Of a DNA stretch of 32,000 nucleotides, positions 16,134 through 32,000 are shown one piece after another. A model generated the notes under the pieces. The model worked only from the letters and a program-made list of their open reading frames with translations, ran no database searches and was not told where the DNA came from. The position numbers were made by a program, and so were the translations under genes. How positions within the stretch are numbered: the stretch's first letter is position 1; each line of letters starts with the position of its first letter. Origin of the DNA: Candidatus Methylomirabilis oxygeniifera (GTDB taxonomy: Bacteria > Methylomirabilota > Methylomirabilia > Methylomirabilales > Methylomirabilaceae); assembly GCA_000091165.1 (NCBI GenBank), contig FP565575.1, positions 240,001-272,000 of the forward strand, in the 5' to 3' direction.

Positions 16134-17291
<1,158 letters not shown>

Positions 17292-17298: not shown

Positions 17299-17970
17299 AT
17301 GCATCGAATCGTTGCGTGCATCGTCGCACTCCTGACCATCGGCGCGGCAGGGGTCGTCAGGGGCCAGGAGCTGAAGACTGAGGAGCAGAAGACGTTTTAC
17401 GCCCTAGGGCTCGCGCTCAGCCAGAGTCTCGGCTTGTTCAATCTTAGCGAGGCCGAGCTGGAGTTGGTGAAGTCAGGTCTCGCCGACGGGGTCCTGAATC
17501 GGACGCGGAAGGTCGAGCTGCCCGCGTACATGAGCAAGGTCCAGGAGTTGCAGACGTCGCGTCAGGCCGCCGCCGCTGCCGTCGAGAAGAAGCAGGGCCA
17601 GTCGTTCCTCGACAAGGCCGCCGCCGAGAAGGGGGTAACCAAGACGGCCTCTGGCGTGATCGTCACCACGCTCAAGTCCGGCACCGGACCCTCCCCCGCG
17701 GCCGGCGACACGGTGAAGGTGCACTACACGGGCACCCTGATCGACGGCACCGTCTTCGACAGCTCCGTGCAGCGTGGACAACCGGCCACCTTCCCCCTCA
17801 ACGGCGTGATCAAATGCTGGACCGAAGGCGTCGTCACCATGAAGGTCGGCGGTAAGGCGAAGCTGGTCTGCCCTGCCGACGCGGCCTACGGCGTCCGGGG
17901 GGCGCCCCCGAAAATTAAGCCGGGCGCCACGCTGGTCTTCGACGTGGAACTGCTGGAGATCGTGAAGTAA
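17299..17970 (+). CDS. Secreted FKBP-type peptidyl-prolyl cis-trans isomerase (FkpA/Mip-like)
   Basis: Signal peptide MHRIVACIVALLTIGAAGVVRGQ, a helical N-domain, and the FKBP domain VKVHYTGTLIDGTVFDSS...GATLVFDVELLEIV. Confidence 0.88.
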   Translation: MHRIVACIVALLTIGAAGVVRGQELKTEEQKTFYALGLALSQSLGLFNLSEAELELVKSGLADGVLNRTRKVELPAYMSKVQELQTSRQAAAAAVEKKQGQSFLDKAAAEKGVTKTASGVIVTTLKSGTGPSPAAGDTVKVHYTGTLIDGTVFDSSVQRGQPATFPLNGVIKCWTEGVVTMKVGGKAKLVCPADAAYGVRGAPPKIKPGATLVFDVELLEIVK

Positions 17971-18440
17971 CGTACCTGAGAGCTGCGCCGCGTCAATCTA
18001 GTCGCTTCACCCCGCCTTCCGAGCCAGACATCCGCGCCCGCATGCGCCACCATACGTGCAAGCATCTCCTGTTCTGGCCATGTAGTTCGTACGGCTCGTC
18101 AACCTCTGTCTCGACAAGACGCGTACGCCCACTGCGCCACCCATTCCGGTCGGAAACCGCCCACCTCTTCCGATTAATCTCGGCCAGGCGTTCCGATGCT
18201 GGTGCAGGTTAGTAGTTGTAATCTGTACCGTGATGTCAAGAGGGCGTCGAACTGCCCGGTCGCCGGATTCCAGAGCATCGGGAGACCAGAAAACAGATCG
18301 TAGCAACCGAGGCAGCAGGGGAGTCCAAAGCACAGTTGATTGACTCGGATTTGGTTCGGGCGGCTCGCTGTCGGAGACCGGATAGGCTGACATAGGTGCA
18401 GCGTTTGCCGTCGCCTGCCTTCATACAAATGTCTTGTTAA

Positions 18441-18663
18441 GTGCCAGAAAAGATTATAGAGTTTTGGCCAGCTCCAAGAACGGCTGGTCGAGATAGACCG
18501 ATCAGCATACGCAATGGTTCGACTTGAAAAGTAGACCGATCGAGATCGATGCGGGACAGAGCAATGATGGCGAACGCGTGAGATCGACGAGAGACGGTGC
18601 CGAGCGCGGATCATCATGTGTCGGAAAGCCACCAGGCGCGAGAGGGGGCAGTATGGCAAGTGA
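18441..18663 (+). pseudogene. Degraded BrnT-like (DUF497) toxin gene
   Basis: The family-typical C-terminus ARIIMCRKATRRERGQYGK-stop is in frame 1 (18598-18663). Upstream pieces are scattered over the other frames (KIIEFW..., WFDLKSRPIEIDAGQSNDGERV...) and interrupted by stops at 18496, 18529 and 18565. Confidence 0.5.
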
Positions 18664-18867
18664 GGAGATGAGAAAAGATACGACTTTTCGAAGGGTGTTC
18701 GGGGCAAGTTTTACAGGCCGGGCCTAAAGATCAGCCTTCCCGTGTACCTTGATCAAGAAGCGATGGCCTTTGTACAGCGCATTGCCCGGAAGAAGAAGAC
18801 CGATATCTCGACGGTGGTCAACAAACTGATTCTCACGGACAAGTACCTTGCAGAGGTTATCGACTAA
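18653..18867 (+). pseudogene. BrnA-like (RHH/CopG-type) antitoxin gene with a 1-nt frameshift
   Basis: ATG 18653 (MASEEMRK) is in frame 2. The family-typical YDFSKGVRGKF...ISLPVYLDQEAMAFVQRIARKKKTDISTVVNKLIL body is in frame 1. One extra A in the A4 run 18673-18676 would join them (MRKRYDFSKG). Confidence 0.6.
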
Positions 18868-19267
18868 GGGTACATCTTGACGAACGACCTGCTCCACCAG
18901 ACGCCGGCTAGGTACCTCTGAGCGTGGCTCGCGATGGTCTGCGGTGCCGCCGGTGAGCAGTACGTTGAGCCCACCAGAGACGAAGGAGGCCAGCGCTCGA
19001 AGCCCACTGAGACCCTGGCGCGAGGCGCCGGAGTGTCGGTTAGTGGTACCCAAGAGAACCGCGTTCGCCGTCGAGTGAGTATAGATTATACTCCCGTAAC
19101 CTGCACCCGCTCGAAACCATTTCCGGTTTCGACTCCATGGAGGTACGTAATCTCGAATTACAGGTTGGGCCGGGATCTCATGGGTGGGCTACTTGTAAGA
19201 ACCGAGGAGATTAGAGCGGACAGTTCAACAGTTCAATCCGGATAGTCGAAACAAATAAGCGAGGGTA

Positions 19268-19495
19268 TCAAGGTGTGCAGGATCGCGGGCGCTCCGTCCG
19301 GGCGATATGGCAGCTCAGGGTTTTCAGAAGAGCTGACAGGTCAACGTTTTGGACCTTGACCGAATCTGGGGCTGTCAGTTGGGCGGGGGCGAAATTGAAG
19401 ACCGCGATTACTCCGCCCTCAACCAGTGCGTCGAGGACGGCCTGGGCGTAGTCGCAGGTCACCTTCAAATTGTAGATGCTAGGAGTTAATCCGAC
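19268..19495 (-). pseudogene. rex: C-terminal fragment of a Rex-type redox-sensing repressor
   Basis: VGLTPSIYNLK..VTCDYAQAVLDALVEGGVIAVFNFAPAQLTAPDSVKVQNVDLSALLKTLSCHI aligns by eye with the last roughly 65 aa of Rex (B. subtilis ...[49 protein letters not shown]). The N-terminal winged-helix and most of the Rossmann domain are absent. Confidence 0.6.
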
Positions 19496-19548
19496 AGCCA
19501 GGCAGAATCCTCGCGAAACCCTACAGGATCTCCATCTAACGGCGCACT

Positions 19549-19818
19549 TTAAGCCGCCACCTCTACCCTTGGTTTTACCAGTCGTGATCGGGGTGGGGCG
19601 ACCTTCTCGATCCTGACATGCACCACTGCCTGCCCAGACTCCCGGCGAGCTCTTGCCAACGCAAGGTTTCTCTCGCATAGTTCTTGGTCATCCTCTGGTA
19701 GGAGGACGACTAGGGCGTTTTCCGGGATCTGTCCGGCAACCTCGGGATGCTCAAGGAGGTAGAGATCGAACTCCGTTGACAGTTTCAGATTTTTTGTGAA
19801 CAGCTCTTGGTCTGTCAT
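19549..19818 (-). CDS. Small uncharacterised protein (89 aa), second gene of an ATGA-coupled pair; resembles the DUF5647 family from memory
   Basis: Clean ORF MTDQELFTKNLKLSTEFDLYLLEHPEVAGQIPENALVVLLPEDDQELCERNL... Its ATG (19818-19816) overlaps the stop of the upstream gene (ATGA). Confidence 0.6.
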   Translation of the reverse strand: MTDQELFTKNLKLSTEFDLYLLEHPEVAGQIPENALVVLLPEDDQELCERNLALARARRESGQAVVHVRIEKVAPPRSRLVKPRVEVAA

Positions 19819-20129
19819 GCTCTCTTCCTTTTCAGGTACGCCTCTTTGTACCGTGCCCAGTTCTCGTCGATGTCCTGATCAGCAAACGTCAACGCCTCTC
19901 CCAGGTCTTTGGTGAGCAGGGGGATTTTCTCCACGGTATCATCGGGGCGGATCCTGTCCATATGCGGAAAGCCATGGGCTGTATCGTAGCGAATAACCGG
20001 GCACCAGTTCCCCTCAATGAAGGTCTCATACTGCACCGTAAATTGCTTCACGGCCCCCTGCTCAGTAACGTGCTCATGCCGCTTTCTATCATTCAAAGTC
20101 AGGAGGTAGGTGTGGCGGGTGAGCTTCAT
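19815..20129 (-). CDS. Small uncharacterised protein (104 aa) with a His-rich motif RYDTAHGFPHMD, first gene of the pair
   Basis: ORF from ATG 20129 (MKLTRHTYLL...). The longer track ORF (to 20255) would run through the predicted promoter and repeat copy A. A strong SD, GAGGAGGG (20160-20153), serves a 6-codon uORF whose TGA overlaps this ATG. Confidence 0.55.
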   Translation of the reverse strand: MKLTRHTYLLTLNDRKRHEHVTEQGAVKQFTVQYETFIEGNWCPVIRYDTAHGFPHMDRIRPDDTVEKIPLLTKDLGEALTFADQDIDENWARYKEAYLKRKRA

Positions 20130-20175
20130 CGGGCAGCATCTTTCACAGCGTTCCCTCCTCTCGGAAGTTACTCTA

Positions 20176-20203
20176 ACCTTATTCGATTCAGTGCAAAAGT
20201 CAA
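20176..20203 (-). promoter_or_regulatory. Candidate sigma-70 promoter for the minus-strand gene pair
   Basis: On the minus strand: TTGACT (20203-20198), 16 nt, TAAGGT (20181-20176). Confidence 0.3.
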
Positions 20204-20222
20204 AGAACTTCGTCGTTATGCA

Positions 20223-20376
20223 GATCACACCCCCGTAATCTTGAGTCTGCTGCATTGGTCACAGTGCCCTGTCTCCCCCCCACGCTTGGTTCGCTACCCT
20301 CAATCGCAGCGTTTTGGACCGGCATCCTGCTTACGAGGCAACCGGCGATCATCGACCGGAGTTTGTAGTACATTTG
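20223..20376 (+). repeat. Direct repeat copy A (about 150 bp, non-coding)
   Basis: Hand-aligns with 21605-21756: about 23 mismatches plus one 2-nt gap over the first 137 positions, mostly transitions. Mismatches show no 3-nt periodicity. Confidence 0.85.
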
Positions 20377-20537
20377 GCCCGAAATAGCCACTGAGGCGCA
20401 TCTGCTGGTGGAATAGGTGCCAAAGTTCCATGTTGGGCTAGGATAGATGCGCCTTGAGAGGGCACGCGCCTGGTCCATCACAGCCCATGCTAGTCATGCC
20501 CCGGGGCCAGCCAAATGTGTCCGATGACTATATGTGG

Positions 20538-20566
20538 TTGACATCATATGACTGTAAGTACATAAT
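20538..20566 (+). promoter_or_regulatory. Near-consensus sigma-70 promoter directly abutting the higB-like ATG (leaderless-type layout)
   Basis: TTGACA (20538-20543), 17 nt, CATAAT (20561-20566), with ATG at 20573 only 6 nt after the -10. The palindrome TCATATGA (20544-20551) lies in the spacer. Confidence 0.5.
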
Positions 20567-20572
20567 ATCTGA

Positions 20573-20935
20573 ATGAAGTGGGACATTGAGTTCCATCAGG
20601 ACTTCGATCCCGAGTTTGACGCGCTGCCCGAAGACGTGCAGGACGAAATCCGTGCCCTTGCCGGTGCACTCGAAGCAATAGGTCCCCTGCTCGGTAGGCC
20701 CCGCGTCGATACGCTCAACGGTTCTCGTTACGCGAATATGAAGGAACTGAGGGTCGATGCGTCTGACGGTGTCTGGCGCGTCGCCTTCGCCTTCGATCCC
20801 AGACGCAAGGCCGTTCTTCTGGCTGCTGGGGACAAATCAGGTGTCAGCGAAAAACGATTTTACCGGCAGCTTTTAGAGAAGGCCGACCGGAGATTTGATC
20901 ATCATCTCTCACGCATCAGGAAGGGAAGGGCTTAG
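20573..20935 (+). CDS. RelE/ParE-superfamily toxin (HigB/Gp49-like)
   Basis: 120 aa. GRPRVDTLNGSRYANMKELRV...GVWRVAFAFDPRRKAVLLAAGDKSGVSEKRFYRQLLEKADRRFDHHL, followed 3 nt later by an XRE-type partner. Confidence 0.75.
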   Translation: MKWDIEFHQDFDPEFDALPEDVQDEIRALAGALEAIGPLLGRPRVDTLNGSRYANMKELRVDASDGVWRVAFAFDPRRKAVLLAAGDKSGVSEKRFYRQLLEKADRRFDHHLSRIRKGRA

Positions 20936-20937
20936 CC

Positions 20938-21299
20938 ATGGCGATCACACTGAAAGACAAAATGAAGGACCTCAGCCCCGCTCGGGGAAAGGCATCGAAG
21001 CGCGTACAGCAGAGCTGGTGAAGGAGCACATGACCTTACAGGAACTGCGGCGCGCCCGTAAGCTGACGCAGGTCAGAGTGGCTAAAGAACTCGGTATTAC
21101 CCAGGACAGCGTGTCGCGCCTTGAAAAGCGCAGCGACCTCCTGCTGTCCACGCTACGGAAGACTGTCCAGGCGATGGGCGGGACGCTGTCTCTTGTCGCG
21201 GAATTCCCTGACCGCCCGCCGGTCGCCCTGTCCGGCATCGCCGAAGACGATCCGACGCCCAAACCGGCAGGCCGGAAAGACGCGCACATCCATGCTTAG
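20938..21299 (+). CDS. HigA-like XRE-family HTH antitoxin, apparently frameshifted near its 5' end
   Basis: ATG 20938 (MAITLKDKMKDLSPAR, frame 1) stops at 21019. The body KGIEARTAELVKEHMTLQELRRARKLTQVRVAKELGITQDSVSRLEKRSDLLLSTLRKTVQAMGGTLSLVAEFPDRPPVAL is in frame 3. One extra G in GGGG 20984-20987 joins them. Internal starts GTG 21018 or ATG 21030 (after AAGGAG) could still give an HTH-only product. Confidence 0.65.
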
Positions 21300-21486
21300 A
21301 GGCCGGCAGACGAGGCGAAACGAAGGACAATAGGGACAGCGACTATTAAAATGAGAAACGATAAGAACGCCGACCGTCAAAATCAGCTGCCGCGCTTTTC
21401 ACGATGGGCCAATTTTGCGGTTGGCGGTAGTAGGCCGCTTTGTACGTGATTCGGACCCTCGCCCACGTCGGGGGTGAAGGCTAGGA

Positions 21487-21525
21487 CCCGTTGATCTCGG
21501 TGGGATTATCAAAGAGATCAACGGG
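21487..21525. other. Perfect 12-bp inverted repeat with a 15-nt loop
   Basis: CCCGTTGATCTC (21487-21498) ggtgggattatcaaa GAGATCAACGGG (21514-21525). No flanking T tract on either strand. Confidence 0.7.
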
Positions 21526-21604
21526 AGGCCTCTTGGGAGCCGCACGTGAGGCGCCAGAGTGGAAAATTGGTGATACTCACGCGCCCGCCACCGAGTGAGG
21601 TGTG

Positions 21605-21756
21605 GATTACACCCCCGTAATCTTGAGCCTCTCGCCTTGGTCGCAGTGCCCTATTTCCCCTACGCTCGGTTTACTACCCTTCATCGAGGTGTCTTGGACC
21701 GGTATCCTGCTTGCGAGGCAACCGGCGATCATCGATTGGAATGGGTGGTGGATTTG
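21605..21756 (+). repeat. Direct repeat copy B (about 150 bp)
   Basis: See copy A. The 5' 23 nt (GATYACACCCCCGTAATCTTGAG) and the 3' roughly 42 nt (TTGGACCGGYATCCTGCTTRCGAGGCAACCGGCGATCATCGA) are the best conserved parts. Confidence 0.85.
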
Positions 21757-21871
21757 ATCGGGATACGCATCCTCAAAAGAAGCACTGCTGAATCATGTAT
21801 GGACCGAGCATGGACAGAGTGTGGACGCAGGCGACGGGTCGAGGGGAGCCGGACGGCTCACTGGCACCAAC

Positions 21872-21903
21872 AAAAAATCCTATCCCCGAAAAGAGATAGG
21901 ATT
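21872..21903 (-). terminator. Rho-independent terminator of ahcY
   Basis: Minus strand: AATCCTATC (21903-21895), 10-nt loop, GATAGGATT (21884-21876) running into TTTTTTGTT. Additional palindromes ATAGGATCCTAT (21911-21922) and GGCAAT-cta-ATTGCC (21924-21938) lie between the stop codon and the terminator. Confidence 0.7.
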
Positions 21904-21940
21904 CAAAGGGATAGGATCCTATAGGCAATCTAATTGCCGA

Positions 21941-23389
21941 TTAATAACGATAATGATCCGGCTTATAGGGACCATCCGGAGAGATTCCGATATATTGAGC
22001 CTGCTTGGGACTCAACCGGGTCAGCTTGATTCCCAGTTTTTCCAAATGCAGTCGAGCGACTTCCTCATCCAGCTTTTTCGGTAAGGTATACACACCTATG
22101 GGTCGCGGATTGTTCCACAGATCGATCTGGGCCAAGGTCTGGTTGGTAAATGAATTCGACATGACGAAACTGGGATGACCTGTGGCACAACCCAGATTGA
22201 CAAGACGTCCTTGAGCCAGAAGATAGAGGGTCTTCCCATTGGGGAGTACATATTTATCAACCTGGGGCTTGATGTTGACGTGTTGCACACCCGGAAGGGA
22301 TTTCAATCCGGCCACATCGATTTCGCTGTCGAAATGCCCGATATTGCAAATGATACTTTCATCTTTCATCATCATCATGTGATCGACGGTAATGACATCC
22401 ACGTTACCGGTGGCGGTGACAAAAATATTTCCCACCCTGGCGGCATCTTCCATTACGGTGACTTCAAAGCCTTCCATCGCCGCTTGTAAAGCGTTGATGG
22501 GATCAATCTCCGTCACGATCACGCGCGCCCCGTAACTGCGCATGCTATGCGCGCACCCCTTCCCGACGTCTCCGTAGCCGGCTACGACCACCACTTTACC
22601 TGCGATCATCACATCGGTGGCGCGTTTGATACCGTCGGCCAATGATTCACGGCATCCGTACAGATTATCGAACTTGCTCTTGGTGACACTGTCGTTCACA
22701 TTAATGGCCGGCACCAACAGCTCCCCTTTGTCCATCATCTGATATAAACGATGGACGCCGGTGGTGGTTTCCTCCGACACGCCTTTCCACTCTTTGCTTA
22801 TACGGGTCCAAAGACCAGGATGGGACTTCAGGGTTTTTCTCAACAAGTTGAGAATACAGCCTTCCTCTTCGCTTTCCGGCGTTCGATCCAGGAAAGACGC
22901 GTCTTTTTCGGCTTTGACTCCCCAATGAATGAGCAGAGTAGCATCGCCACCATCATCCACAATAAGCTGGGGTCCCAGGACCTCACCGTGTTTGCCGGGG
23001 TGAACCAGCGCTCTAAAAGTACAGTCCCAATATTCTTCCAGGGTTTCACCTTTCCAGGCGAATACGGGAACTCCAGCCACAGCAATGGCTGCCGCCGCAT
23101 GGTCTTGGGTTGAAAAGATATTGCAAGAGGCCCAGCGAACATCCGCACCCAGGTCGACCAGGGTTTCGATCAATACGGCTGTTTGAATGGTCATATGCAG
23201 CGAACCGGTGATCCGGACGCCTTTGAGGGATTTCAATTTCCCGTACTTTTCACGCACCGCCATCAGGCCGGGCATTTCTTTTTCGGCGATTTCAATCTCT
23301 TTGCGACCAAAATCGGCCAAGGACAAATCCGCCACTTTGAAATCAGGCAAAGAGGATACGTTTTTTTCTGTTAACGTCTGCATGTTCAT
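21941..23389 (-). CDS. ahcY: Adenosylhomocysteinase (long form with insertion segment)
   Basis: [44 protein letters not shown]..., NAD motif [14 protein letters not shown] and C-terminal KPDHYRY. Start taken at ATG 23389 (or 23383). The track ORF extends in frame to 23527 through the leader. Hand GC counts of three 60-nt lines gave 52%, 37% and 53%, versus 58% for a line of the neighbouring GT gene. Confidence 0.93.
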
Positions 23390-23498
23390 GTCCTTTTTAT
23401 AAAGAGTGCGAGGCGCCCCTATTTTAGTCCTCACCGGTCGCGCGGAACGCGGCGAGGGGAATTTCATTTTTTGATAAGGTATTGCTTCTGACGGGGGA

Positions 23499-23527
23499 AG
23501 TATAAGCAGCAACGGACTTGCGGTCAA
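23499..23527 (-). promoter_or_regulatory. Near-consensus sigma-70 promoter for ahcY
   Basis: Minus strand: TTGACC (23527-23522), 17 nt, TATACT (23504-23499). Leaves a leader of about 100 nt before the ATG. Confidence 0.5.
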
Positions 23528-23548
23528 GGCAATATTGGCCCCAAAATG

Positions 23549-23608
23549 TGGGGTGTAGCCATGCGAGCCCGCGGGATGGGCGCGAACGTCATCGTGACCG
23601 AGATCGAT
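23549..23608 (+). pseudogene. ahcY: About 20-codon relic of a second, high-GC adenosylhomocysteinase gene
   Basis: [20 protein letters not shown] matches the SAHH NAD-domain block. The intact gene in this window reads [21 protein letters not shown], 12 of 19 identical. Similarity stops abruptly on both sides. Confidence 0.6.
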
Positions 23609-23680
23609 CTTCAGAGGAAGATGGCGATCCGTTCAGGCGCTACGATTTCGCGCCTCTCATCTCTAATGAATGTGCTATTC

Positions 23681-23695
23681 TGGGACATCTATTGC
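23681..23695 (+). promoter_or_regulatory. Candidate sigma-54 (-24/-12) promoter upstream of the GT operon
   Basis: TGGGACatctaTTGC versus consensus TGGCACG-N4-TTGC, with correct GG-N10-GC spacing. 56 nt upstream of ATG 23751. Confidence 0.4.
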
Positions 23696-23750
23696 GGCCG
23701 TATGCTCTCTCCTCGCGAGAGGGCGAGTAGGTACCATTGGTAGGCTCAAC

Positions 23751-25598
23751 ATGCGGATTCTACAAGTCGTCCACCTGTTTCCTCCTGAACAGTCTGCGGG
23801 GACAGAGCGCTATACGCAGGCCCTGGCGCGAGGGCTTGTAGCGAGGGGCCACGAGTGTCTCGTGCTTGCCGGATCGACCGAGAGCGCCTCAGAGCCTGGG
23901 GTACTGGTCAGAGGTCAAGATAGCCTCACTGTAGCTCGGCTCGTTGGGGTTCGGCAGGGATCCGGATTCCGGGTTGATAGCTACAATGCCGCGGCTGACG
24001 GCCTGATCAGGACCGTTCTTGACCTCTGGCGACCGGATCTGGTCCATCTCCAGCATTGGTACCGGCTGACGGGGAATCTGGTGGCGATATGCGCGCAGGC
24101 CGGGATCCCGGCCGTCGTCACCCTGCATGACCAGTGGCTTGCCTGCCCGAGGTTTCACCGGGTCCGGCCGGATGGCACATTCTGCGCGGAGCAGGTTGTT
24201 CCCTGTATTGCCTGCATCGATCGCGACCCGTGGCAGACCGATCAGGAGATCGACCGGGAACAGGACGTGCGTGCGCGCCTCCTTGCAGAGGAACTCAGAC
24301 TGGCCGGATGTCTCCTCGTCCCCTCCGAGGCCCAGCGGCGATTCCTGAGCCGGATCGCCGATATCCCGCCGGATCGCCTTCAGGTCGTGCCGTTGGGCTC
24401 ACCCGTCGAGTGGCCTCAAGGGGCTGTAGAGGAGCGGCGGCCGGATGGGGAGGGTCCCCTCAGAATCGGCTACTGGGGATATCTTGCGCCCCTGAAGGGG
24501 GTCCATACGCTCCTGGAAGCTGCTCGCGTGCTGGCTGGGGAATCCGACAGTCGCTTCGAGTGGCATCTCCTCGGGAGTTCCACCGACTCGATGTACGATG
24601 AAAAGCTCCGGACGTTGGCGGAAGGGCTTCCGGTCACCTTTCACGGCCCGTACCTCCACAGCGACGTCGCCGCTCTGGATTTCGATGTTGCCGTGTTTCC
24701 GTCGCTGTGCTATGAAACATACTCGTTTGTCCTCGATGAGGCCTTCCAGCTTGGACTGCCGGTGCTCGTACCGGATCGTGGGGCGCCGGCCGACCGTATC
24801 GGAGGGCGAGGTATGACCTTCCGGGCGGGCGATCCCCACGACCTGGCGCAGCGACTCCGATTCCTTCTTCAGGAGCCGCACCGGCTCGAGGAGATGCGCC
24901 ATAGCCTGCCCAGTGGAGGGGTTGTGACGATGGATGCGCACGCGCGAGACCTGGAGAAGATCTATCGCGAGACCTCAGTGTTGAAGCCTCCATCCTCCGA
25001 TGAGGCGGCCACATACCGGGTGCTGCTTACGCATCGGGAGCAGCAACTGGCCGATCGGGAGCAGCGGCTCTCCGAGCAGCAACGACACATCGAGGAGCTC
25101 ATGGCCGATCGGGAGCAGCGGCTCTCCGAGCAGCAACGACACATCGAGGAGCTCATGGCCGATCGGGAGCAGCGGCTCTCCGAGCAGCAACGACACATCG
25201 AGGAGCTCATGGCCGATCTCGCCGCACGGAATGAGAGTCTCCATGTCCAACATGAGGAGGCGGAGCGATTACAGGTCGGACTGGCCGATCTGGAGCGACT
25301 CCTCGCCGCCGCGCGCACGGATCTTGACGTGAGAGTCGCCGAGACCGAGGCAGCGCGGGCCGCGCTGGAGGCCAGGAACCGGGAGGCGGCCGAACTGCAC
25401 GCGCAGACAGTGGCGCAAGACGGGCTCCTCCTCGAACTGCAGGCGAGCTTGGCAGCCCGAACGCAAGAGGCTGACGGTCTGCGGCGTGAGGCGGAAGAGT
25501 CCGATCGCCTGCTTCTGGAGGCACGGCAGTCGATACTGGGATCGCTGGATGCCAAGCTTAAGGGTGTGGTGAGGCGGATCGGCGGGAAGGACCGGTAA
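23751..25598 (+). CDS. Glycosyltransferase family 4 with a C-terminal coiled-coil tail of about 190 aa
   Basis: MRILQVVHLFPPEQSAGTERY N-terminus typical of GT4. C-domain FPSLCYETYSFVLDEAFQLGLPVLVPDRGA. The tail is rich in E/R/L/A/Q and contains ADREQRLSEQQRHIEELM x3. Confidence 0.85.
   Translation: MRILQVVHLFPPEQSAGTERYTQALARGLVARGHECLVLAGSTESASEPGVLVRGQDSLTVARLVGVRQGSGFRVDSYNAAADGLIRTVLDLWRPDLVHLQHWYRLTGNLVAICAQAGIPAVVTLHDQWLACPRFHRVRPDGTFCAEQVVPCIACIDRDPWQTDQEIDREQDVRARLLAEELRLAGCLLVPSEAQRRFLSRIADIPPDRLQVVPLGSPVEWPQGAVEERRPDGEGPLRIGYWGYLAPLKGVHTLLEAARVLAGESDSRFEWHLLGSSTDSMYDEKLRTLAEGLPVTFHGPYLHSDVAALDFDVAVFPSLCYETYSFVLDEAFQLGLPVLVPDRGAPADRIGGRGMTFRAGDPHDLAQRLRFLLQEPHRLEEMRHSLPSGGVVTMDAHARDLEKIYRETSVLKPPSSDEAATYRVLLTHREQQLADREQRLSEQQRHIEELMADREQRLSEQQRHIEELMADREQRLSEQQRHIEELMADLAARNESLHVQHEEAERLQVGLADLERLLAAARTDLDVRVAETEAARAALEARNREAAELHAQTVAQDGLLLELQASLAARTQEADGLRREAEESDRLLLEARQSILGSLDAKLKGVVRRIGGKDR
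25050..25218 (+). repeat. Three perfect in-frame 54-bp tandem repeats (+7 nt of a fourth)
   Basis: GCCGATCGGGAGCAGCGGCTCTCCGAGCAGCAACGACACATCGAGGAGCTCATG at 25050-25103, 25104-25157 and 25158-25211, then GCCGATC. Confidence 0.95.
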
Positions 25599-25621
25599 AT
25601 GGTAATGGGTGGTGATCGGCG

Positions 25622-27202
25622 ATGAGGATCGGCATTTATAATCACTGGCTGTCCACGCTGGGTGGAGGCGAGAAGGTGACTGCGGCGATGGCTGAAGCGC
25701 TCAGTCATCATTATCAGGTAGACCTTATTGGTCCGGAGCGGGTCCCGAGATCGCAGATCGAAGATCGCATCAACGTGGATCTGGGCAAGGTTGATGTCAA
25801 GGTCATCAACATCATGGAGCGGACGCCGTCCTTCACCAAAGAGTACGATCTGTTCATCAATGCCACACACGGGGCCATTCTGCCGACCATGTGCAAGCGG
25901 AATATCCTCTATGTGTACTTTCCGATCAGACTGGTCGGCGGATCGCTGCTCAAGCGGACACTCAAAGCGTTCCTGTTCCGCCGGTTTCGGTATGGACATC
26001 CTCTCGAAGGGCTCTATCCTGCAGACCGGGCTCAGGGAACGGTCTTATGGTGGACAGGACCGTACGCCAATCTCCGGGTGCCGCTGCCGAAGTCCTCTCA
26101 TCCGCTTGCCCTTGAGCTGACGATTCGCGGCTATCGAACCGCCCACGCCTCACCGGCTCGGATCCGCCTGAGAATCTGCGGTGAGGAGGTCTCAGAGGCG
26201 CTGCCTGCGCTCTCGCCTCACGACTTCAGTCGCATCCGCATCCCGATCCCGAGGCACGGGACGCAGCAGGAGTGCATCGAGGCCGAAATCTTTGCGGATA
26301 CCTTTTGCCCGGCCACCGAGGGATCTTCGACTGATGTGCGGGAGCTTGGTGTCATGCTGGGGTGGGCGCGATCGACAAACGGCTTTGAGCCTCTTCACTG
26401 GCTCCTCTCGAAGCTCATTCCGGACGTTGACATGCGACTTCAGAATCAGGTCGAACTTCTCTCCGGCCAACTGCACCTGGAGCGCTACCAAACCATCTGC
26501 GCCGTCTCACGGTACACTCAGCGCTGGATCGAGCGGTACTGGAGGCGGGAGAGCGACCTGCTCTATCCGCCCGTCGACGGCGCGTCCGGCGAGACGCGCG
26601 CGAAGCGGAACGTCATCTTGAGCGTCGGTCGTTTCTTTGACGGGCATCACAACAAGAAGCACTTTGAGATGGTCAAGGCATTTCAGGAGATGTGCGATGC
26701 CGGGCTCAGGGGATGGGAGCTGATCCTGGTCGGCGGGACCCACGGGGAGGAGATCCACCAGACCTACCTTGAGCGGCTGAAGCAGGCCTGCGTGGGATAT
26801 CCCATCTCGATCCTCACCGATATCCCTTTCGTCACGATCAAGGAGCTGTATGCCACGAGCGCGCTGTACTGGCATGCCACCGGTTATGACGAGGATGAAT
26901 CGAGGGTCCCTGAGCGGCTTGAGCATTTCGGCATGGCCACGGTCGAGGCGATGGCGGCGGGGTGCGTGCCGGTAGTGATCGGAAAGGCCGGGCAGATCGA
27001 GATCATCGAGGACGGCCGAAGCGGTTTTCTCTGGAATACGCTGGATGACCTGAAGCGGCATTCCCTCACACTGATCCGCGATGAACGCCTGAGACGGCGT
27101 CTTGCCGAGGGCGCCGTCACGCGAAGTCGCGACTTCAGTCGGGACGTCTTTGTCGCGAACGTGTTGAAAACGGTTGAGCGAACCCTCTCCAAGCCGGCGT
27201 GA
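25622..27202 (+). CDS. Glycosyltransferase family 4 with a large N-terminal/central extension
   Basis: MRIGIYNHWLSTLGGGEKV N-terminus. C-terminal GT1/GT4 domain SVGRFFDGHHNKKH...EHFGMATVEAMAAGCVPVVIGKAGQIEIIEDGRSGFLW. Confidence 0.85.
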   Translation: MRIGIYNHWLSTLGGGEKVTAAMAEALSHHYQVDLIGPERVPRSQIEDRINVDLGKVDVKVINIMERTPSFTKEYDLFINATHGAILPTMCKRNILYVYFPIRLVGGSLLKRTLKAFLFRRFRYGHPLEGLYPADRAQGTVLWWTGPYANLRVPLPKSSHPLALELTIRGYRTAHASPARIRLRICGEEVSEALPALSPHDFSRIRIPIPRHGTQQECIEAEIFADTFCPATEGSSTDVRELGVMLGWARSTNGFEPLHWLLSKLIPDVDMRLQNQVELLSGQLHLERYQTICAVSRYTQRWIERYWRRESDLLYPPVDGASGETRAKRNVILSVGRFFDGHHNKKHFEMVKAFQEMCDAGLRGWELILVGGTHGEEIHQTYLERLKQACVGYPISILTDIPFVTIKELYATSALYWHATGYDEDESRVPERLEHFGMATVEAMAAGCVPVVIGKAGQIEIIEDGRSGFLWNTLDDLKRHSLTLIRDERLRRRLAEGAVTRSRDFSRDVFVANVLKTVERTLSKPA

Positions 27203-27236
27203 GCCTCCGCCGCGCGGATCTGGGGGGGGCAGTCTG

Positions 27237-29237
27237 ATGATGACCTGGGAGGGTAAGGGGTGGAGGGCGTATGCCAACTTTCTTCTCGTGAGATTTCAGC
27301 GCAGCCGGAAGAGCACACGAGTGTATGGCCGCCCCTATGCATTGACCCTGGATCCCTCGAGCTACTGTAATCTTCGCTGCCCCTTCTGTCCCACCGGCCA
27401 GCGAAATCACCTGCGTTCCTCCGCGCACCTTCCCCTCGATCGCTTCAAGCGCCTGATGGACGAGCTGGGTCCGTACCTGTTCTGGGTGGAACTGTACAAT
27501 TGGGGCGAACCCTTTCTCAACCGCGACCTTATTCCGATGCTCGAGTATATGGCGCGCTACCGGATCGCGTCGGTTATCAGCACCAATCTTGATTTTCCGC
27601 TCTCTGAGGAGTTGATCGAACAGCTTGTGGCGAGCGGTTTATCGACGCTCATCGTCTCGGCGGACGGGGTCTCGCAGGAGGCATACGAACGGTATCGGGT
27701 CGGCGGACACCTCGAGCGGGTCCTGGGCAACATGAAGATGATTGCGGCGGCGAAGCAGCGGGTTGGGTCGGCCGTCCCAAGGATCGTCTGGAGGTTCCTC
27801 GTCTTCCGCCACAACGAGCATGAGATCGAACAGGCCAGAAGCATGGCCGAGGAGATGGGGGTCGAGCTTGAGCTGGGCGCCCCGTACGTGGCGATTGCGC
27901 AGGAGTCGTACCGCGACTGGATCTCAACCATTCCTCAGTTCAACCTCTACCCCTCGGTGACGTCCGGGGTTCAGACGGAGCCTGCTCCCCCCGCTCAGCC
28001 AAACCCGGCCTCCGATGCCTGCGACTGGCTCTGGATGTCGGCGGCGGTCAATGCCAACGAATCGGTGTCCCCCTGTTGCGGCATCTGGGAGGAGCGCCAC
28101 GATTTCGGCCGGATCGGCGCGGGAGGATTTCGGACGCTGTGGAACGGTGAAAGCTACCGTGCCGCCCGTACGTTTATGCGAATCGGCGTCTCAAGCGGAT
28201 TGAATTTGATCTGCGAACAGTGCCCTTTCCCGAATCTCTGGAAACACGCCTCTCATTTCGATCCGTTGATCCTGGAGAGTTTTTCGACGCGCCTCCCGGG
28301 ATTCATGAGGAATACCGTGCTCCGATGGGTGGGGGCGGAGTCATCGTCGTCTACTCAACGGAAGAAGAAGGAAAGAGCGGGGGATCATCGCCTTCAGCGA
28401 TCCCGGATCTACCCGCTGATACCGGCGCCCTCCTCCTGGATGGAGTCGCTCATGGTCAGGTGCCGACGCGGGGGGATCGCTTTCTGCCCTGTATGCGGCA
28501 GGTATGGGACGCTGACCGTCGAACACGACAATCTCCGCGAAACTGTCCGGTGTTCCCGCTGCGGAGCGGTCAACCGGCAACGCCAGCTTGCGCACGTGGC
28601 CTGCGCAAGTCTCTCGACGGTTCTGGGGTATAAGATCACGTCGCTGAGGCAGCTTGCCTCCGATGACGAGATTGTGATCTACAATATGAAGGCCGGCGGT
28701 CCGGTTCATGTCGCCTTATCCGGGGCCAGACGCTACCTGTGCGGCGAGTATATCGGTCCGGAGTATCAAATCGGCGCCATCGTGAATGGGGTGGTGCATC
28801 AGGATCCGGCGCGGCTGCCGTATCCCGACGGCAGCATCGATCTGGTCCTCTCGTCGGACGTGTTCGGACATATCCCGCATCCGTACGCGGCTCATCGCGA
28901 GGTCTACCGGGTGTTGCGAGAGGGCGGACGCCATATATTCACCGTCCCGTTCTACCAGACTGAGTTCTCCGATGAGACCCGGGTGACGGTCGGCGAGGAC
29001 GGGGCCCCTCTCTTCGTCAGAGAGCCGCTCTATCACCATGATCCGATCCGGCCGGGCCGGACAGCCCTGGTCTACACGATCTTCGCGTTGGAGATGCTGC
29101 TGAAGCTGGATCAGATCGGGTTCAGGACGAATCTGTATCGGCTGCGAAAGCCGTTGCGTGGCCTCCCGGGTCAGAACGGGCTCGTATTCGAGGCCGTGAA
29201 GGTCGCCGCCGGAGACGCGGGGTTTCGACTTCCCTGA
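27237..29237 (+). CDS. Fusion: radical SAM domain (with C-terminal Cys-rich SPASM/twitch-like region) + Zn-ribbon + class I SAM-dependent methyltransferase
   Basis: CNLRCPFCPTG (CX3CX2C, 27366-27389). Cys cluster CDWLW...SPCCGIW...CEQCPFPN. CPVCG...CSRCG (28485-28562). Methyltransferase block LPYPDGSIDLVLSSDVFGHIPHPYAAHREVYRVLREGGRHIFTVPF. ATG ATG at 27237. Confidence 0.8.
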   Translation: MMTWEGKGWRAYANFLLVRFQRSRKSTRVYGRPYALTLDPSSYCNLRCPFCPTGQRNHLRSSAHLPLDRFKRLMDELGPYLFWVELYNWGEPFLNRDLIPMLEYMARYRIASVISTNLDFPLSEELIEQLVASGLSTLIVSADGVSQEAYERYRVGGHLERVLGNMKMIAAAKQRVGSAVPRIVWRFLVFRHNEHEIEQARSMAEEMGVELELGAPYVAIAQESYRDWISTIPQFNLYPSVTSGVQTEPAPPAQPNPASDACDWLWMSAAVNANESVSPCCGIWEERHDFGRIGAGGFRTLWNGESYRAARTFMRIGVSSGLNLICEQCPFPNLWKHASHFDPLILESFSTRLPGFMRNTVLRWVGAESSSSTQRKKKERAGDHRLQRSRIYPLIPAPSSWMESLMVRCRRGGIAFCPVCGRYGTLTVEHDNLRETVRCSRCGAVNRQRQLAHVACASLSTVLGYKITSLRQLASDDEIVIYNMKAGGPVHVALSGARRYLCGEYIGPEYQIGAIVNGVVHQDPARLPYPDGSIDLVLSSDVFGHIPHPYAAHREVYRVLREGGRHIFTVPFYQTEFSDETRVTVGEDGAPLFVREPLYHHDPIRPGRTALVYTIFALEMLLKLDQIGFRTNLYRLRKPLRGLPGQNGLVFEAVKVAAGDAGFRLP

Positions 29238-29295
29238 TGCGCCGAGCCGTATCGATCCCCCCGGATCCGTCGGAGGCAGTCAGCGCGGAGACGCG

Positions 29296-30759
29296 ATGAT
29301 GCAGACCCTCAAGCCCCCTCTGGTGTCGGTCGTTATCGTAAACTACAACGGCCTGCATTTTCTCGGCCCGTGCCTGACCTCTCTGGAGCGGCTTCATTAT
29401 CCGCGAGAGCGGTACGAGGTGATCCTGGTCGACAATGCCTCGAGCGACGGATCGATCCCCTATGTGCGAACGCAATTTCCGTGGGTGACGATCGTTCGGA
29501 ACGCAGCGAACCTCGGCTTTGCAGGAGGCAACAATGCGGGCATCCGGGCGGCCAAAGGCGCGTACCTTGCCCTCCTCAACAACGACACGCGGGTCGATCG
29601 GGACTGGCTCGCCGCCCTCGTCGAGGTCTGTGAGGCCGATCCGCTCGTGGGGGCCTGCACATCCAAGATCCTGCTGATGAAGGATCGGCTGCGGCTTCGT
29701 CTCGAGACCGATGCCTTCACACCAAGCGGTCTTGGCGTGTCTGCAGACTCGCGTGAGCTGGGCGTCATCGTAGAGCAGGCCGCAGTGCGCAGCGGCGATG
29801 CGGCAAGGCCGGTGGACTTCGTCGAGGGGTTCTACGGGGAGGAGCTGGTCGGGGAGCGGCGTTACCGGTGGTCGAGCGGTCGAGCGATCCTCGGTCTTCC
29901 CATCTCTCCGGACGACCGGGCGTTGAGCCTCGTACTGTCCGTCTCGAACCCCCGTCCGTCGGGTGCGCCGACCGCCCCGGTGTCCCTGTGGGTCGGTGAG
30001 GAGCGGATCGCGCAGTTCGACGCCGCGTTCGAGCCGCGGACCTATGAGGTTCCGCTTGCAGAGGCGATCCTGCGCCAGGCGCGACAGGTCATCCAGAATG
30101 CCGGTTCTCTCCTGCTCCCGGATGGTTCAGGTCGTGATCGGGGTGCCCTGGTCAGGAACGGACAGCAGAGCTTTGAAGAGAACCACGGCCAGTACGATCG
30201 GACGGAGGAGGTCTTTGCGCTGTGTGGGGCTGCGGTCCTCCTGCGGCGGACGATGCTGGACGACGTCGGGCTGCTTGATGACGAGTTCTTCATGTACTAT
30301 GAGGACACCGATCTGGCATGGCGAGCCCGGCTCAGGGGGTGGAAGATTATGTATGCCCCGGGTGCGGTGGTGCGCCACGTCCATTGTGGGTCCAGCATCG
30401 AATGGTCGCCCCTCTTTACCTTCCACGTGCTCCGCAATCGACTGGCCATGCTGCTGAAAGACGCCCCTGCCGGGATGGCGGCGAGGGAATGGAGACAATT
30501 TCTGCTTTCCCTTCTGATACAGGGAATGAAGCTCTCCGCGCATTGCGCTCGGGGCGGCGGTCGCCGGGTGACCCCCCTGTGGCAGGACGTCGGCGTGAGA
30601 GCCCGGGTCGCGCGATCGCTTATGATGTCCCTGCCAGGCCTCTACCGGAAACGCAGGACGATTCGTGGGGCGGCGCGGGTCGGGGACGAGGCGATCATGC
30701 GATGGATATGCGATCCGGACAGGACCGTATATCCATCGAGAAGTAAAAAAATCACTTGA
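29296..30759 (+). CDS. Glycosyltransferase family 2 with a central insertion of about 150 aa
   Basis: VSVVIVNYNGLHFLGPCLTSL...VILVDNASSDGS...LALLNNDTRV, then FMYYEDTDLAWRARLRGW, separated by a non-canonical segment. Confidence 0.85.
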   Translation: MMQTLKPPLVSVVIVNYNGLHFLGPCLTSLERLHYPRERYEVILVDNASSDGSIPYVRTQFPWVTIVRNAANLGFAGGNNAGIRAAKGAYLALLNNDTRVDRDWLAALVEVCEADPLVGACTSKILLMKDRLRLRLETDAFTPSGLGVSADSRELGVIVEQAAVRSGDAARPVDFVEGFYGEELVGERRYRWSSGRAILGLPISPDDRALSLVLSVSNPRPSGAPTAPVSLWVGEERIAQFDAAFEPRTYEVPLAEAILRQARQVIQNAGSLLLPDGSGRDRGALVRNGQQSFEENHGQYDRTEEVFALCGAAVLLRRTMLDDVGLLDDEFFMYYEDTDLAWRARLRGWKIMYAPGAVVRHVHCGSSIEWSPLFTFHVLRNRLAMLLKDAPAGMAAREWRQFLLSLLIQGMKLSAHCARGGGRRVTPLWQDVGVRARVARSLMMSLPGLYRKRRTIRGAARVGDEAIMRWICDPDRTVYPSRSKKIT

Positions 30760-30800
30760 CAGGTGTGAAATGCCATGATAGGAAAACGCTACTAAGAAAG

Positions 30801-30816
30801 TGGCGTGCAGGCTGCT
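30801..30816 (+). promoter_or_regulatory. Candidate sigma-54 (-24/-12) promoter upstream of the IPTL-CTERM protein gene
   Basis: TGGCGTGcaggcTGCT, with GG-N10-GC spacing matching TGGCACG-N4-TTGCW. 76 nt upstream of ATG 30892. Confidence 0.4.
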
Positions 30817-30891
30817 GTAGGGCACTGAGACGGTATGTGCATTGGCGATGCTGCATGAGAGGCTATGGCTGCCGGGGAGAGGAGGACGAGT

Positions 30892-31791: not shown

Positions 31792-31820
31792 CCATCGCAA
31801 CGGACTATTCGATCGGTATG

Positions 31821-31853
31821 AAAAAGCGGGGCGATACGCCCCGCTTTTTCTTT
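31821..31853 (+). terminator. Rho-independent terminator (bidirectional shape)
   Basis: AAAAA GCGGGGCG ata CGCCCCGC TTTTTCTTT. Confidence 0.8.
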
Positions 31854-31917
31854 GTCAACCGTTCTTGATCTCCACAGTCCCATTCCGCCTATGGTAGCGT
31901 CAACCGATGAACCGGAG

Positions 31918-32000
31918 ATGGACACACGCCGTGGACGGATCGAGGTTATCAGTACCGCTGTTGTCCTCGCCCTGATCTACGGAGTACTCCTTTGGCAGTT
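31918..32000 (+). CDS. Possible 5' end of a membrane protein gene (runs off the window)
   Basis: ATG 31918 opens MDTRRGRIEVISTAVVLALIYGVLLWQ..., open to the window end. Only 27 codons are visible and the SD spacing is weak. Confidence 0.3.
   Translation, partial: MDTRRGRIEVISTAVVLALIYGVLLWQ

Follow-up and report, generated by a model that had tools for sequence, protein, structure and literature searches.

Probable in situ displacement of the native adenosylhomocysteinase gene ahcY by a distant homologue in Methylomirabilis

The ahcY gene of Candidatus Methylomirabilis oxygeniifera is, with high probability, a xenologue that displaced its native counterpart in place. We analyzed this gene in a window of 32,000 nucleotides (contig FP565575.1, positions 240,001 to 272,000; all coordinates given here are those of the window), and its relevant features are compiled in Table 1. 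At this locus, the event was probably a replacement of the native homologue and not an addition to it; it is common to all Methylomirabilis loci that we examined (the window, L002, L003, L085, L086, L087, and L089), and it is neither recent nor specific to M. oxyfera. Horizontal acquisition of this housekeeping gene had already been proposed in a first-pass annotation of the window. This proposal is now supported by the switch of enzyme class in the chromosomal slot, a surviving remnant of the displaced ahcY, the discordant relationships of AhcY and MetK, and the donor-like codon usage, and hence much more strongly than by composition. S-adenosylhomocysteine (SAH) hydrolase converts SAH into adenosine and homocysteine and relieves the product inhibition of SAM-dependent methyltransferases. 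Our literature search found no paper linking Methylomirabilis with adenosylhomocysteinase or S-adenosylhomocysteine.

Table 1. Features of the ahcY locus in window coordinates.
Feature	Coordinates	Strand	Description
metK	16134..17291	+	native functional partner, left edge of the slot; TIGR01034, 576 bits
FKBP gene	17299-17970		within the spacer filling
Filling of the metK/ahcY spacer	17299..21866	.	strain-variable; outside the ahcY acquisition
Predicted intrinsic terminator	21867..21904	-	13-bp stem, 4-nt loop, T-run; hairpin 21904-21875
Cassette	21867..23546	-	high nucleotide identity across the genus, sharp edges; blastn
ahcY CDS (probable xenologue)	21941..23383	-	long-class SAH hydrolase, 480 aa; TIGR00936
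5' leader	23384..23498	-	about 115 nt from -10 hexamer to start codon; conserved
Predicted sigma-70-like promoter	23499..23527	-	TTGACC-17-TATACT; consensus match, conserved hexamers
Relic of native short-class ahcY	23519..23662	+	ancestral orientation; just upstream of the import

The gene product was identified as adenosylhomocysteinase by a TIGR00936 match of 619.3 bits (cut-off 497.6) covering residues 17-473, and its database homologues carry the PF05221 and PF00670 domains. Translation starts with the ATG at position 23383 (MQTL...), in agreement with every homologue from the genus and with the database gene call. The right-hand end of the gene had previously been set at 23527, where the TTG of the maximal open reading frame is also the -35 hexamer, and this coordinate has to be corrected since the coding sequence begins at 23383. 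The earlier description of ahcY as the only long minus-strand gene holds if only genes with family support are counted; the remaining long reading frames on this strand are located opposite verified plus-strand genes, and the DUF7718 gene is short (146 aa).

Compared with solved structures, AhcY matched 6uk3, 5v96, and 4lvc best (646-712 bits) in a single full-length stretch, and it aligned equally in one piece with 3ond and 3d64 (626-712 bits for these five long-class structures). Mammalian enzymes of about 432 aa gave two aligned stretches, the second of which resumed near query residue 199. Judged by its sequence, the window protein is a member of the long, insertion-bearing bacterial/eukaryotic class of about 480 aa with an insert of about 40 residues. 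Within the published two-group phylogeny of SAH hydrolases (Stepkowski, 2005), as far as its summary in PMC6063907 describes it, the window protein with this insertion corresponds to the bacterial/eukaryotic group; the archaeal-type group comprises the relic as well as the enzymes found in the NC10 relatives. The best PDB matches split by class (6uk3/4lvc for the long and 7o5l/7r37/3x2e for the short enzymes), which agrees with the two-group topology. The short AhcY of L091 scored 584 bits with 7o5l, 520 with 7r37, and 416 with 3x2e, vs 336 bits or less with long-class structures; we take these three short-class structures to be enzymes from Synechocystis, archaea, and Thermotoga. Unlike in the general two-group picture summarised in PMC6063907, both groups occur here in one chromosomal slot of a single family-level lineage, so that the switch can be dated and its direction assigned.

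The gene order kdsD-kdsC-metK-[ahcY]-lptG-lptF is conserved across the loci examined from the phylum NC10, to which Methylomirabilis belongs. All seven Methylomirabilis loci carry a long-class ahcY of 480-481 aa on the strand opposite to metK, while the outgroups L090 and L091 carry a 418-aa short-class ahcY in the slot that is read in the same direction as metK. The comparison of synteny with relatives that had been suggested as a check of the transfer thus revealed a conserved slot (between metK and lptG, with the long form in L085, L086, L087, and L089) that is occupied by AhcY of the other class in the nearest outgroups. While MetK from L091 and L090 is 87.5% and 82.3% identical to that of the window, their short AhcY proteins are only 43% identical to the window AhcY, and the GC3 values of the short genes (0.83 and 0.91, respectively) are host-like. 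Database clusters at 90% identity contain further ahcY copies labelled M. oxyfera, M. limnetica, and Methylomirabilis sp. Matches to PyrG and MetK at 90-99% identity are labelled Methylomirabilis or NC10, and MetK has a dense run of NC10-labelled homologues from 99% down to 83% identity. In trees of the flanking proteins, calculated by neighbour-joining with bootstrap rather than by maximum likelihood, the genomes with the long ahcY form one clade with bootstrap values of 86-100 (MetK, LptG, LptF, and both concatenations) or 57 (KdsC alone). Since this clade excludes L091, with L090 as the outgroup, the short form is ancestral.

The ancestral copy is present at this locus only as a decayed relic. 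It was detected by tblastn with the short AhcY proteins of L091 (E = 1.5e-5) and L090 (E = 2.9e-5), and by blastn against nt 659-711 of the L091 ahcY gene (83% identity, E = 3.6e-9). Its core (23552-23602) encodes 17 residues that all (17/17) agree with the short enzyme at positions 221-237, the native NAD-binding site, and differ from the 19-residue segment of the long enzyme. Homologous relics in L087 and L085 retain the C-terminal 35 residues as well, and an internal deletion junction joining TE to I(D/V)LQ is identical in the relics of all three genomes. A tblastn search of the genus loci for the native 5' part (residues 1-189) found no relic.

Phylogenetic analysis of AhcY, again by neighbour-joining, placed the genus clade (bootstrap 100) inside a group formed by L001, L175, L176, P0008-P0014, and L005 (bootstrap 98), in conflict with how the host and its flanking genes are related. 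The proteins nearest to the import, at 80-85% identity, come from this donor-like lineage. AhcY from M. oxyfera is 77-85% identical to the proteins of this donor-like group, whose members are 78-86% identical to each other; for MetK, the corresponding values are 60-62% and 82-88%. The genomes of the donor-like group possess a metK-ahcY tandem. Searches of genome and metagenome contigs with AhcY gave, among the matches listed, sequences of 69-77% identity, mostly from Bacteroidales, and these matches served as labelled tree sequences and to find a Fibrobacteria metK-ahcY tandem. The label Fibrobacteria for the donor-like lineage is that of the submitters of one metagenome-assembled genome (L005) and one protein (P0122). 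The most likely donor would be a mid-GC organism from the lineage that includes these Fibrobacteria-labelled genomes.

The composition of ahcY sets it apart from its surroundings, as the first-pass annotation had noted. Its coding sequence has a GC content of 0.509 and a GC3 of 0.574, vs 0.603 +/- 0.023 and 0.720 +/- 0.048 (minimum 0.650) for the 19 other genes of the window, i.e., deviations of z = -4.05 and -3.06, respectively; the recommended check of GC3 and codon usage, run against the window genes, thus places ahcY outside their range. Windows of 500 nt over the gene have a GC content of 0.49-0.54, compared to 0.59 for the entire window. Against the host pool, the codon usage of ahcY gave a scaled chi-square of 0.387, the highest value in the window (0.046-0.155 for genes of at least 380 codons), and this value dropped to 0.126 when the gene pool of L175 was used instead. 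The proportions of GAA (73%) and AAA (67%) codons in ahcY resemble those in genes of the donor-like lineage (GAA 58-89%; AAA 17-76%, mostly favoured and low only in L176), but not those in native genes of the window (8-44% and 11-40%) or, for GAA, in the native short ahcY genes of the relatives (4-29%). Recoding of the AhcY protein in host codons yielded a GC content of 0.565 and a GC3 of 0.718. Amino-acid composition therefore explains about 40% of the GC deficit, and codon choice about 60%. The protein sequence does not enforce a low GC content since the 85% identical AhcY of L001 is encoded with a GC3 of 0.82. For metK, the host-like composition reported before was confirmed (GC 0.585, GC3 0.715).

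In all seven loci of the genus, ahcY has a GC content of 0.50-0.52, while most neighbouring genes range from 0.56 to 0.65. The polarity of singleton substitutions gave no indication of an upward drift of GC in ahcY (35 W>S vs 41 S>W). In host genes from five to six genomes of the genus, GC-to-AT singletons outnumber AT-to-GC singletons, and because native genes also have this S>W excess, singleton polarity cannot date the transfer. Translational selection may contribute to the preference of ahcY for A-ending codons and to its low synonymous divergence.

The gene is part of a cassette with defined limits. Alignments by blastn between genus loci extend from 21867, 21908, or 21937 to 23546 or 23615 with 89-96% identity, and the spacers on both sides cannot be aligned; in a profile of L087 vs L089, the cassette is 90-97% and the flanking genes are 75-88% identical. 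Both the promoter and the terminator that had been attributed to ahcY were recovered as predicted elements and were each the sole match of our scan of positions 21700-23700, in which the numbers of matches did not exceed those in shuffled sequences; the weight of these predictions comes from conservation, of the promoter and leader in six genus loci and of the terminator in three. The promoter hexamers, 17 or 18 nt apart, are identical in the six aligned loci, and the leader is largely invariant in the alignment of six species. The terminator, which faces metK convergently, is conserved only in the window, L086, and L087. Scans of the leader against Rfam at gathering thresholds, including the SAH riboswitch (RF01057), gave no match, and a scan of positions 23340-23680 at E <= 10 gave only chance-level matches to unrelated families; we therefore do not call an SAH riboswitch upstream of ahcY. 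The leader did not fold better than shuffled sequence (z = -0.14), and inspection by eye showed no likeness to the metK-ahcY spacers of the donor lineage. Neither repeats bracketing positions 21867-23546, nor tRNA genes in the window (and hence no tRNA integration site), nor mobility domains in the open reading frames next to the cassette were found, and no scars of mobile elements were seen.

The position of ahcY at the edge of a "relic island" had been noted before, and while this position is correct, a connection between the two is not: several loci of the genus carry ahcY but no island. Besides the FKBP gene, the spacer filling consists of non-coding stretches, the DUF7718 gene, and a Gp49/HTH toxin-antitoxin pair recognized by Pfam. 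It is absent in L087, L089, and L003, where metK and ahcY are separated by only 84-227 nt, and is replaced by other content in L085 and L086. The acquisition of ahcY is unrelated to the island, and the region from 17.99 to 21.87 kb is strain-variable filling.

A recent acquisition at the strain level, together with the adjacent island, was implied by the first-pass annotation and is invited by the 4-kb pseudogene-like stretch and the toxin-antitoxin pair that ahcY abuts in the window. It is refuted by the loci of L087, L089, and L003 and by the edges of the identity block: the same gene, slot, and promoter recur in other genus loci, several of them devoid of the island, the block ends at the terminator (21867-21937), and the spacer content varies from genome to genome, which leaves this scenario with practically no probability. 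Vertical inheritance would make ahcY a native gene whose low GC content and unusual codons reflect gene-specific selection, e.g., for high expression. In many bacteria, the optimal codons typically include GAA, AAA, GGT, and ACC; the fourfold-site divergence of ahcY is below that of its neighbours, as is often the case for highly expressed genes, and its singletons do not drift toward higher GC. Nevertheless, we regard vertical inheritance as exceedingly improbable, given the 43% identical enzyme of the other class in the slot of the nearest NC10 outgroups (whose MetK is 82-88% identical), the short-class relic adjoining ahcY, the lack of such a codon bias in the relatives' native short ahcY genes, and the GC3 of the 85% identical L001 homologue. 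The reverse polarity, in which NC10 had the long form from the outset and the lineages of L090 and L091 gained the short form, would be compatible with the presence pattern alone if these two were sisters, and only two genomes with the short form were examined. Yet L091 is nearer to Methylomirabilis than to L090 (MetK, LptG, LptF, and KdsC), so that two independent gains in the same slot and on the same strand would be required; this, the relics of the short form inside Methylomirabilis genomes, and the match of the short but not the long genes to host composition make a reversed direction very unlikely.

A variant of the displacement reading concerns its timing: the xenologue might have entered one lineage after diversification of the genus had begun and then, through interspecies recombination, have taken the place of the native gene in the other species instead of becoming fixed a single time on the stem. 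Divergence at fourfold sites between the two subclades of the genus is 0.14-0.27 for ahcY vs 0.39-0.83 for the flanking genes (seven to ten per comparison), a 2-3-fold difference, while within subclades it is close to that of the flanks (0.15 between L086 and L089, against a median of about 0.18); the identity block is also sharp-edged. The nucleotide tree of ahcY groups L087 with L086 and L089 (bootstrap 100), whereas LptG, LptF, and KdsC group it with L085 (87-99) and MetK groups it with M. oxyfera (100). Part of the divergence signal could, however, be mimicked by slower synonymous change in ahcY, the flanks are mosaic as well (on one contig, PyrG is 99% and MetK 93% identical), the deletion junction that the relics of three species have in common is in keeping with one early event, and the comparison comprises only six genomes. 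We consider this late entry a serious contender, somewhat short of an even chance.

Under xenologous displacement in place, the NC10 ancestor would have possessed a short ahcY (418 aa) of the archaeal/cyanobacterial class behind metK and on its strand, with lptG facing them. Along the stem of the Methylomirabilis clade, or shortly after its earliest splits, a cassette of about 1.7 kb with the long-class ahcY would have arrived in reverse orientation within or on top of the native gene's 5' two-thirds; the conserved block also contains the putative promoter, the 115-nt leader, and, in some species, the terminator. The native 5' part would then have been lost, while the 3' part probably decayed in place through an internal deletion (read in three species), followed by frameshifts and stops, or elsewhere disappeared entirely. 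The imported gene would now supply SAH hydrolase and be transcribed alone, convergently to metK and not in tandem with it. Its low GC content and its GAA/AAA-rich dialect would be an inheritance from the donor. The cassette has later been swapped between Methylomirabilis species as a discrete block.

Koonin, Makarova, and Aravind reportedly dealt with xenologous gene displacement in situ in 2001. The ahcY case is a clean new example of this known process (Omelchenko et al., 2003, Genome Biol 4:R55, as cited in PMC2783167): a distant, horizontally acquired homologue replaces a housekeeping gene and occupies its chromosomal position, with the order kdsC-metK-[ ]-lptG-lptF left intact. It differs in the inversion of the import, which possesses a promoter-like site, a leader, and a terminator of its own, so that operon structure and orientation are not preserved. 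In addition, the cassette has subsequently passed from species to species within the genus, and the displaced gene can still be recognised as a relic. To the best of our knowledge, such relics have rarely been documented. The cassette shares atypical GC content and codon usage and sharp borders with classical genomic islands, but lacks a tRNA, an integrase, a transposase, and flanking direct repeats, and it consists of a single 1.7-kb housekeeping gene common to all genus loci examined.

That a distant homologue has replaced a core metabolic gene is, as a rule, deduced only from trees. The ahcY locus preserves side by side a conserved slot, the ancestral state as seen in close outgroups, the relic, and the donor codon dialect, from which the direction, the approximate timing, and the likely donor of the transfer can be read off directly. 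The case also indicates that atypical composition may last while a genus diversifies and need not ameliorate, and warns that GC deviation is a poor tool for dating transfers. We tentatively entertain the idea, with rather more doubt than belief, that the cassette is a discrete, selectively favoured unit that swept through already-diverged Methylomirabilis species by recombination and eliminated the short native enzyme throughout. In that case, the long-class SAH hydrolase, or independent regulation via its 115-nt leader, would confer a fitness advantage on a nitrite-dependent methane oxidiser. Under the displacement reading as such, recycling in the methyl cycle of Methylomirabilis would be in the hands of a foreign enzyme whose gene is transcribed apart from metK.

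The minus-strand open reading frame was identified as an adenosylhomocysteinase gene (ahcY; see table). Since all close AhcY homologues begin with MPTL or MQTL and the database gene call agrees, the extra 5' codons of the maximal frame, which overlap a promoter-like site, are non-coding; the right end of the gene, placed at 23527 by the first-pass annotation, was thus moved to the start codon at 23383. The identical protein, with the same neighbours, was recovered elsewhere (Methylomirabilis_oxyfera_contig_6, GCA_009026205.1, Logan assembly of SRR023516). The window carries an LPS/Kdo cluster (pyrG, kdsA, msbA, glycosyltransferases, kdsD, an ArnT-like gene, kdsC) with metK behind it, and its PyrG and MetK have 90-99% matches labelled Candidatus Methylomirabilis or NC10. 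Together with the records of the identical AhcY, these matches identify the window as Ca. Methylomirabilis oxyfera.

Contigs with close MetK/AhcY homologues share the order kdsD-(ArnT-like)-kdsC-metK-[ahcY]-lptG-lptF-Rce1-like, and comparison of this slot across NC10 loci was decisive. At six further Methylomirabilis loci (L085, L086 on an M. limnetica-like contig, L087, L089, L002, L003; MetK 89.6-97.7% identical to that of the window), the slot is occupied by an ahcY that lies on the other strand from metK and has a 480-481-aa product 92-98% identical to the window AhcY, a GC of 0.50-0.52 and a GC3 of 0.545-0.587, compared to a GC3 of 0.64-0.75 in most neighbours. Since all six carry this same low-GC gene, the acquisition is neither recent nor specific to M. 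oxyfera. In the successive NC10 outgroups L091 (MetK 87.5%) and L090 (MetK 82.3%), the conserved slot is occupied instead by a 418-aa ahcY that is co-directional with metK, shares the GC3 of its neighbours (0.83 and 0.91) and encodes a protein only 43% identical to the window AhcY. The best solved relatives are 6uk3, 5v96, 4lvc, 3ond and 3d64 for the long AhcY, and 7o5l, 7r37-7r3a and 3x2e for the short one; these classes are the two deep SAHase groups of Stepkowski et al. (2005), as summarised in PMC6063907. When neighbour-joining trees were built from the flanking proteins, the long-ahcY genomes all fell into a single clade to the exclusion of L091, with L090 outside (bootstrap 86 for MetK, 99 for LptG, 100 for LptF, 92-100 for concatenations, 57 for KdsC alone). 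The short, co-directional ahcY is therefore the ancestral occupant. The horizontal acquisition suggested by the first-pass annotation is supported as an interpretation, but its timing, its link to a "relic island" and the gene start are corrected.

The low GC content and atypical codons noted from the sequence alone proved to be real. GC is 0.509 in ahcY versus 0.603 +/- 0.023 in the 19 other window genes (z = -4.05), GC3 is 0.574 versus 0.720 +/- 0.048 (minimum 0.650; z = -3.06), and the scaled codon-usage chi-square against the host pool is 0.387 versus 0.046-0.155 for window genes of similar length. Rewriting the protein with host codon frequencies gave a GC of 0.565 and a GC3 of 0.718, so the deficit is mostly a matter of codon choice. 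M. oxyfera ahcY uses GAA at 73% and AAA at 67%; GAG and AAG are preferred by native M. oxyfera genes and by the native short ahcY of both outgroups. Against the gene pool of L175, a donor-like genome (locus GC 0.53), the chi-square was 0.126, a fit as good as that of a native gene, compared to the poor fit to its own host. Singleton synonymous changes (35 W>S, 41 S>W) show no amelioration of ahcY; in native genes, S>W changes are in excess.

As for its source, a neighbour-joining tree of 65 AhcY sequences placed the Methylomirabilis clade (bootstrap 100) within a donor-like group (bootstrap 98) comprising L001 (a 3.75-Mb genome), L175, L176, P0008-P0014 and the MAG L005; AhcY proteins of Bacteroidota, Verrucomicrobiota, Acidobacteriota and Latescibacterota fell outside this group. 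M. oxyfera shares 77-85% AhcY identity with the group and only 60-62% MetK identity, versus 78-86% and 82-88%, respectively, within it. In four of four donor-like genomes ahcY lies directly behind metK; only ahcY, not metK, crossed into NC10. In donor-lineage genes, irrespective of GC3, GAA accounts for 58-89% and AAA is mostly favoured (17-76%, with low values in L176 alone), a codon dialect that agrees with this lineage as the source. From the submitters' labels, Fibrobacteria on L005 and Fibrobacterota on one cluster member, we infer a Fibrobacteria/Fibrobacterota-like donor.

Remnants of the displaced gene were detected by tblastn with the short AhcY proteins of L091 and L090 as queries. 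The matches lie immediately upstream of the long ahcY on the plus strand, the ancestral orientation; the second L087 match stops about 10 nt short of the lptG stop codon. At the DNA level, window positions 23550-23602 match nt 659-711 of L091 ahcY (83% identity, E = 3.6e-9), and the 3' 100 nt of the latter match L085 and L087 at 75-76%. The 17 residues translated from 23552-23602 equal residues 221-237 of the two short enzymes and are unlike the counterpart in the long enzyme, so the relic did not arise by partial duplication of the import. In each of the three relics, TE is followed directly by I(D/V)LQ, joining residue 237 to 384 through the same deletion of about 146 codons, after which frameshifts and stops arose lineage by lineage; the relics descend from one pseudogene. 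The relic is lost in L086, L089 and L002, and tblastn found no trace of native residues 1-189 in the genus loci. In the simplest history, the cassette (the conserved block that carries ahcY) would have inserted in inverted orientation, either within the 5' two-thirds of the native gene or on top of them.

Features of the ahcY region, with coordinates on the window unless another locus is named
Feature	Locus	Position	Strand	Details
FKBP-type peptidyl-prolyl isomerase gene	window	17299-17970	+	8 nt past metK
Direct repeat, ~155 nt, 80-84% identical	window	20223-20376; 21605-21756		brackets toxin-antitoxin pair
Gp49-like toxin/HTH antitoxin	window	20573-21299
Terminator of ahcY	window	21904-21867	-	hairpin and T-run
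ahcY, maximal frame	window	21941-23527	-	TIGR00936, 619 bits (cut-off 498)
ahcY start codon	window	23383	-	ATG, 480-aa product
Leader	window	23384-23498	-
Promoter-like site	window	23527-23499	-	TTGACC-17-TATACT
Relic	window	23519-23662	+	residues 213-258, E = 1.5e-5
Relic	L087	12964-13050		residues 213-238
Relic	L087	13047-13151		residues 384-418, 71% identity, E = 5e-9
Relic	L085			3 pieces, residues 190-237 and 383-418
Glycosyltransferase/radical-SAM-methyltransferase cluster	window	23670-32000
GT4 gene	window	23670-25598
Tandem repeats in GT4 gene	window	~25000-25200		3 copies of 18-residue ADREQRLSEQQRHIEELM
Hypothetical gene, 409 aa	L086	12576-13805		GC 0.43, GC3 0.50

Unexpectedly, the cassette has diverged less than its surroundings. 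At 4-fold sites, ahcY differs by 0.14-0.27 from one genus subclade to the other, compared to 0.39-0.83 for each of the flanking genes; inside subclades, ahcY resembles its flanks. L087 and L089 are 75-88% identical in the flanks and 90-97% in the cassette, on either side of which the spacers cannot be aligned, and the ahcY nucleotide tree groups L087 with L086 and L089 (bootstrap 100), in conflict with LptG, LptF and KdsC (with L085, 87-99) and MetK (with M. oxyfera, 100). Together, this identity jump, the divergence and the conflicting trees demonstrate that the cassette passed between species at least once. It may have swept more widely once the genus had diversified, or a lower synonymous rate of ahcY may account for the low between-subclade values. 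L085 (GCA_040960765.1, 381-kb contig) matches the window at 99% for PyrG, 93% for MetK and 98% for AhcY; the region in its entirety is a mosaic produced by recombination between Methylomirabilis species.

A hot spot lies between metK and the cassette. This spacer measures 84-227 nt in L087, L089 and L003; at L085 and L086 it contains an FKBP gene together with a hypothetical one, and in the window the FKBP gene is accompanied by some 3.9 kb with DUF7718, the Gp49/HTH toxin-antitoxin pair and non-coding stretches. Since its content varies in this way, the "relic island" to which ahcY had been tied is a later, strain-level filling unrelated to the acquisition. The FKBP gene, restricted to L085, L086 and the window (both subclades represented), is an outlier opposite to ahcY (GC3 0.87; other native window genes 0.65-0.77); its 4-fold divergence between subclades is 0.06-0.12, versus 0.39-0.63 for flanking genes in the same comparisons, and it looks like a recent within-genus transfer of a high-GC3 gene. 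L085 and L086 each have one stretch matching both copies of the direct repeat, which suggests that the toxin-antitoxin module was inserted through duplication or recombination at this sequence. The 409-aa gene in the L086 spacer is another foreign insertion. Short REP-like motifs of type GCTGATCGCTAACAGCTGAACGC surround the cassette in L086, L089 and L002, and in some species replace the relic and fill spacers. Directly at the relic end, the window has a glycosyltransferase cluster where L085, L086, L087 and L089 have lptG-lptF-Rce1, a strain-specific rearrangement or insertion in M. oxyfera; the ADREQRLSEQQRHIEELM repeats sit in the C-terminal coiled-coil-like tail of its family-4 glycosyltransferase.

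The promoter-like site and terminator are both present where the first-pass annotation had put them, and matches of either type are not rarer than in shuffled sequence. Promoter and leader (~115 nt, down to the start codon) are kept in six Methylomirabilis loci and the terminator, convergent in some species, in three. Across six species the leader is more conserved than synonymous sites; it matched no Rfam family, SAH riboswitch included, and its predicted folding was neither stable nor unusual. We regard it as a candidate uncharacterised cis-regulatory element. The imported ahcY would be transcribed independently of metK, behind which the ancestral gene stood in tandem.

The ahcY case is an in situ xenologous gene displacement, an established category (Omelchenko et al., 2003, as cited in PMC2783167). 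In contrast to the operon cases, the incoming gene forms a self-contained unit in inverted orientation, and a relic of the displaced gene is still present. Our literature search found no paper linking Methylomirabilis with adenosylhomocysteinase. The long-class gene is intact, is 92-98% conserved across the genus and probably supplies cellular SAH hydrolysis; its displacement of the native enzyme is a new, unusually well-documented instance of an established process.
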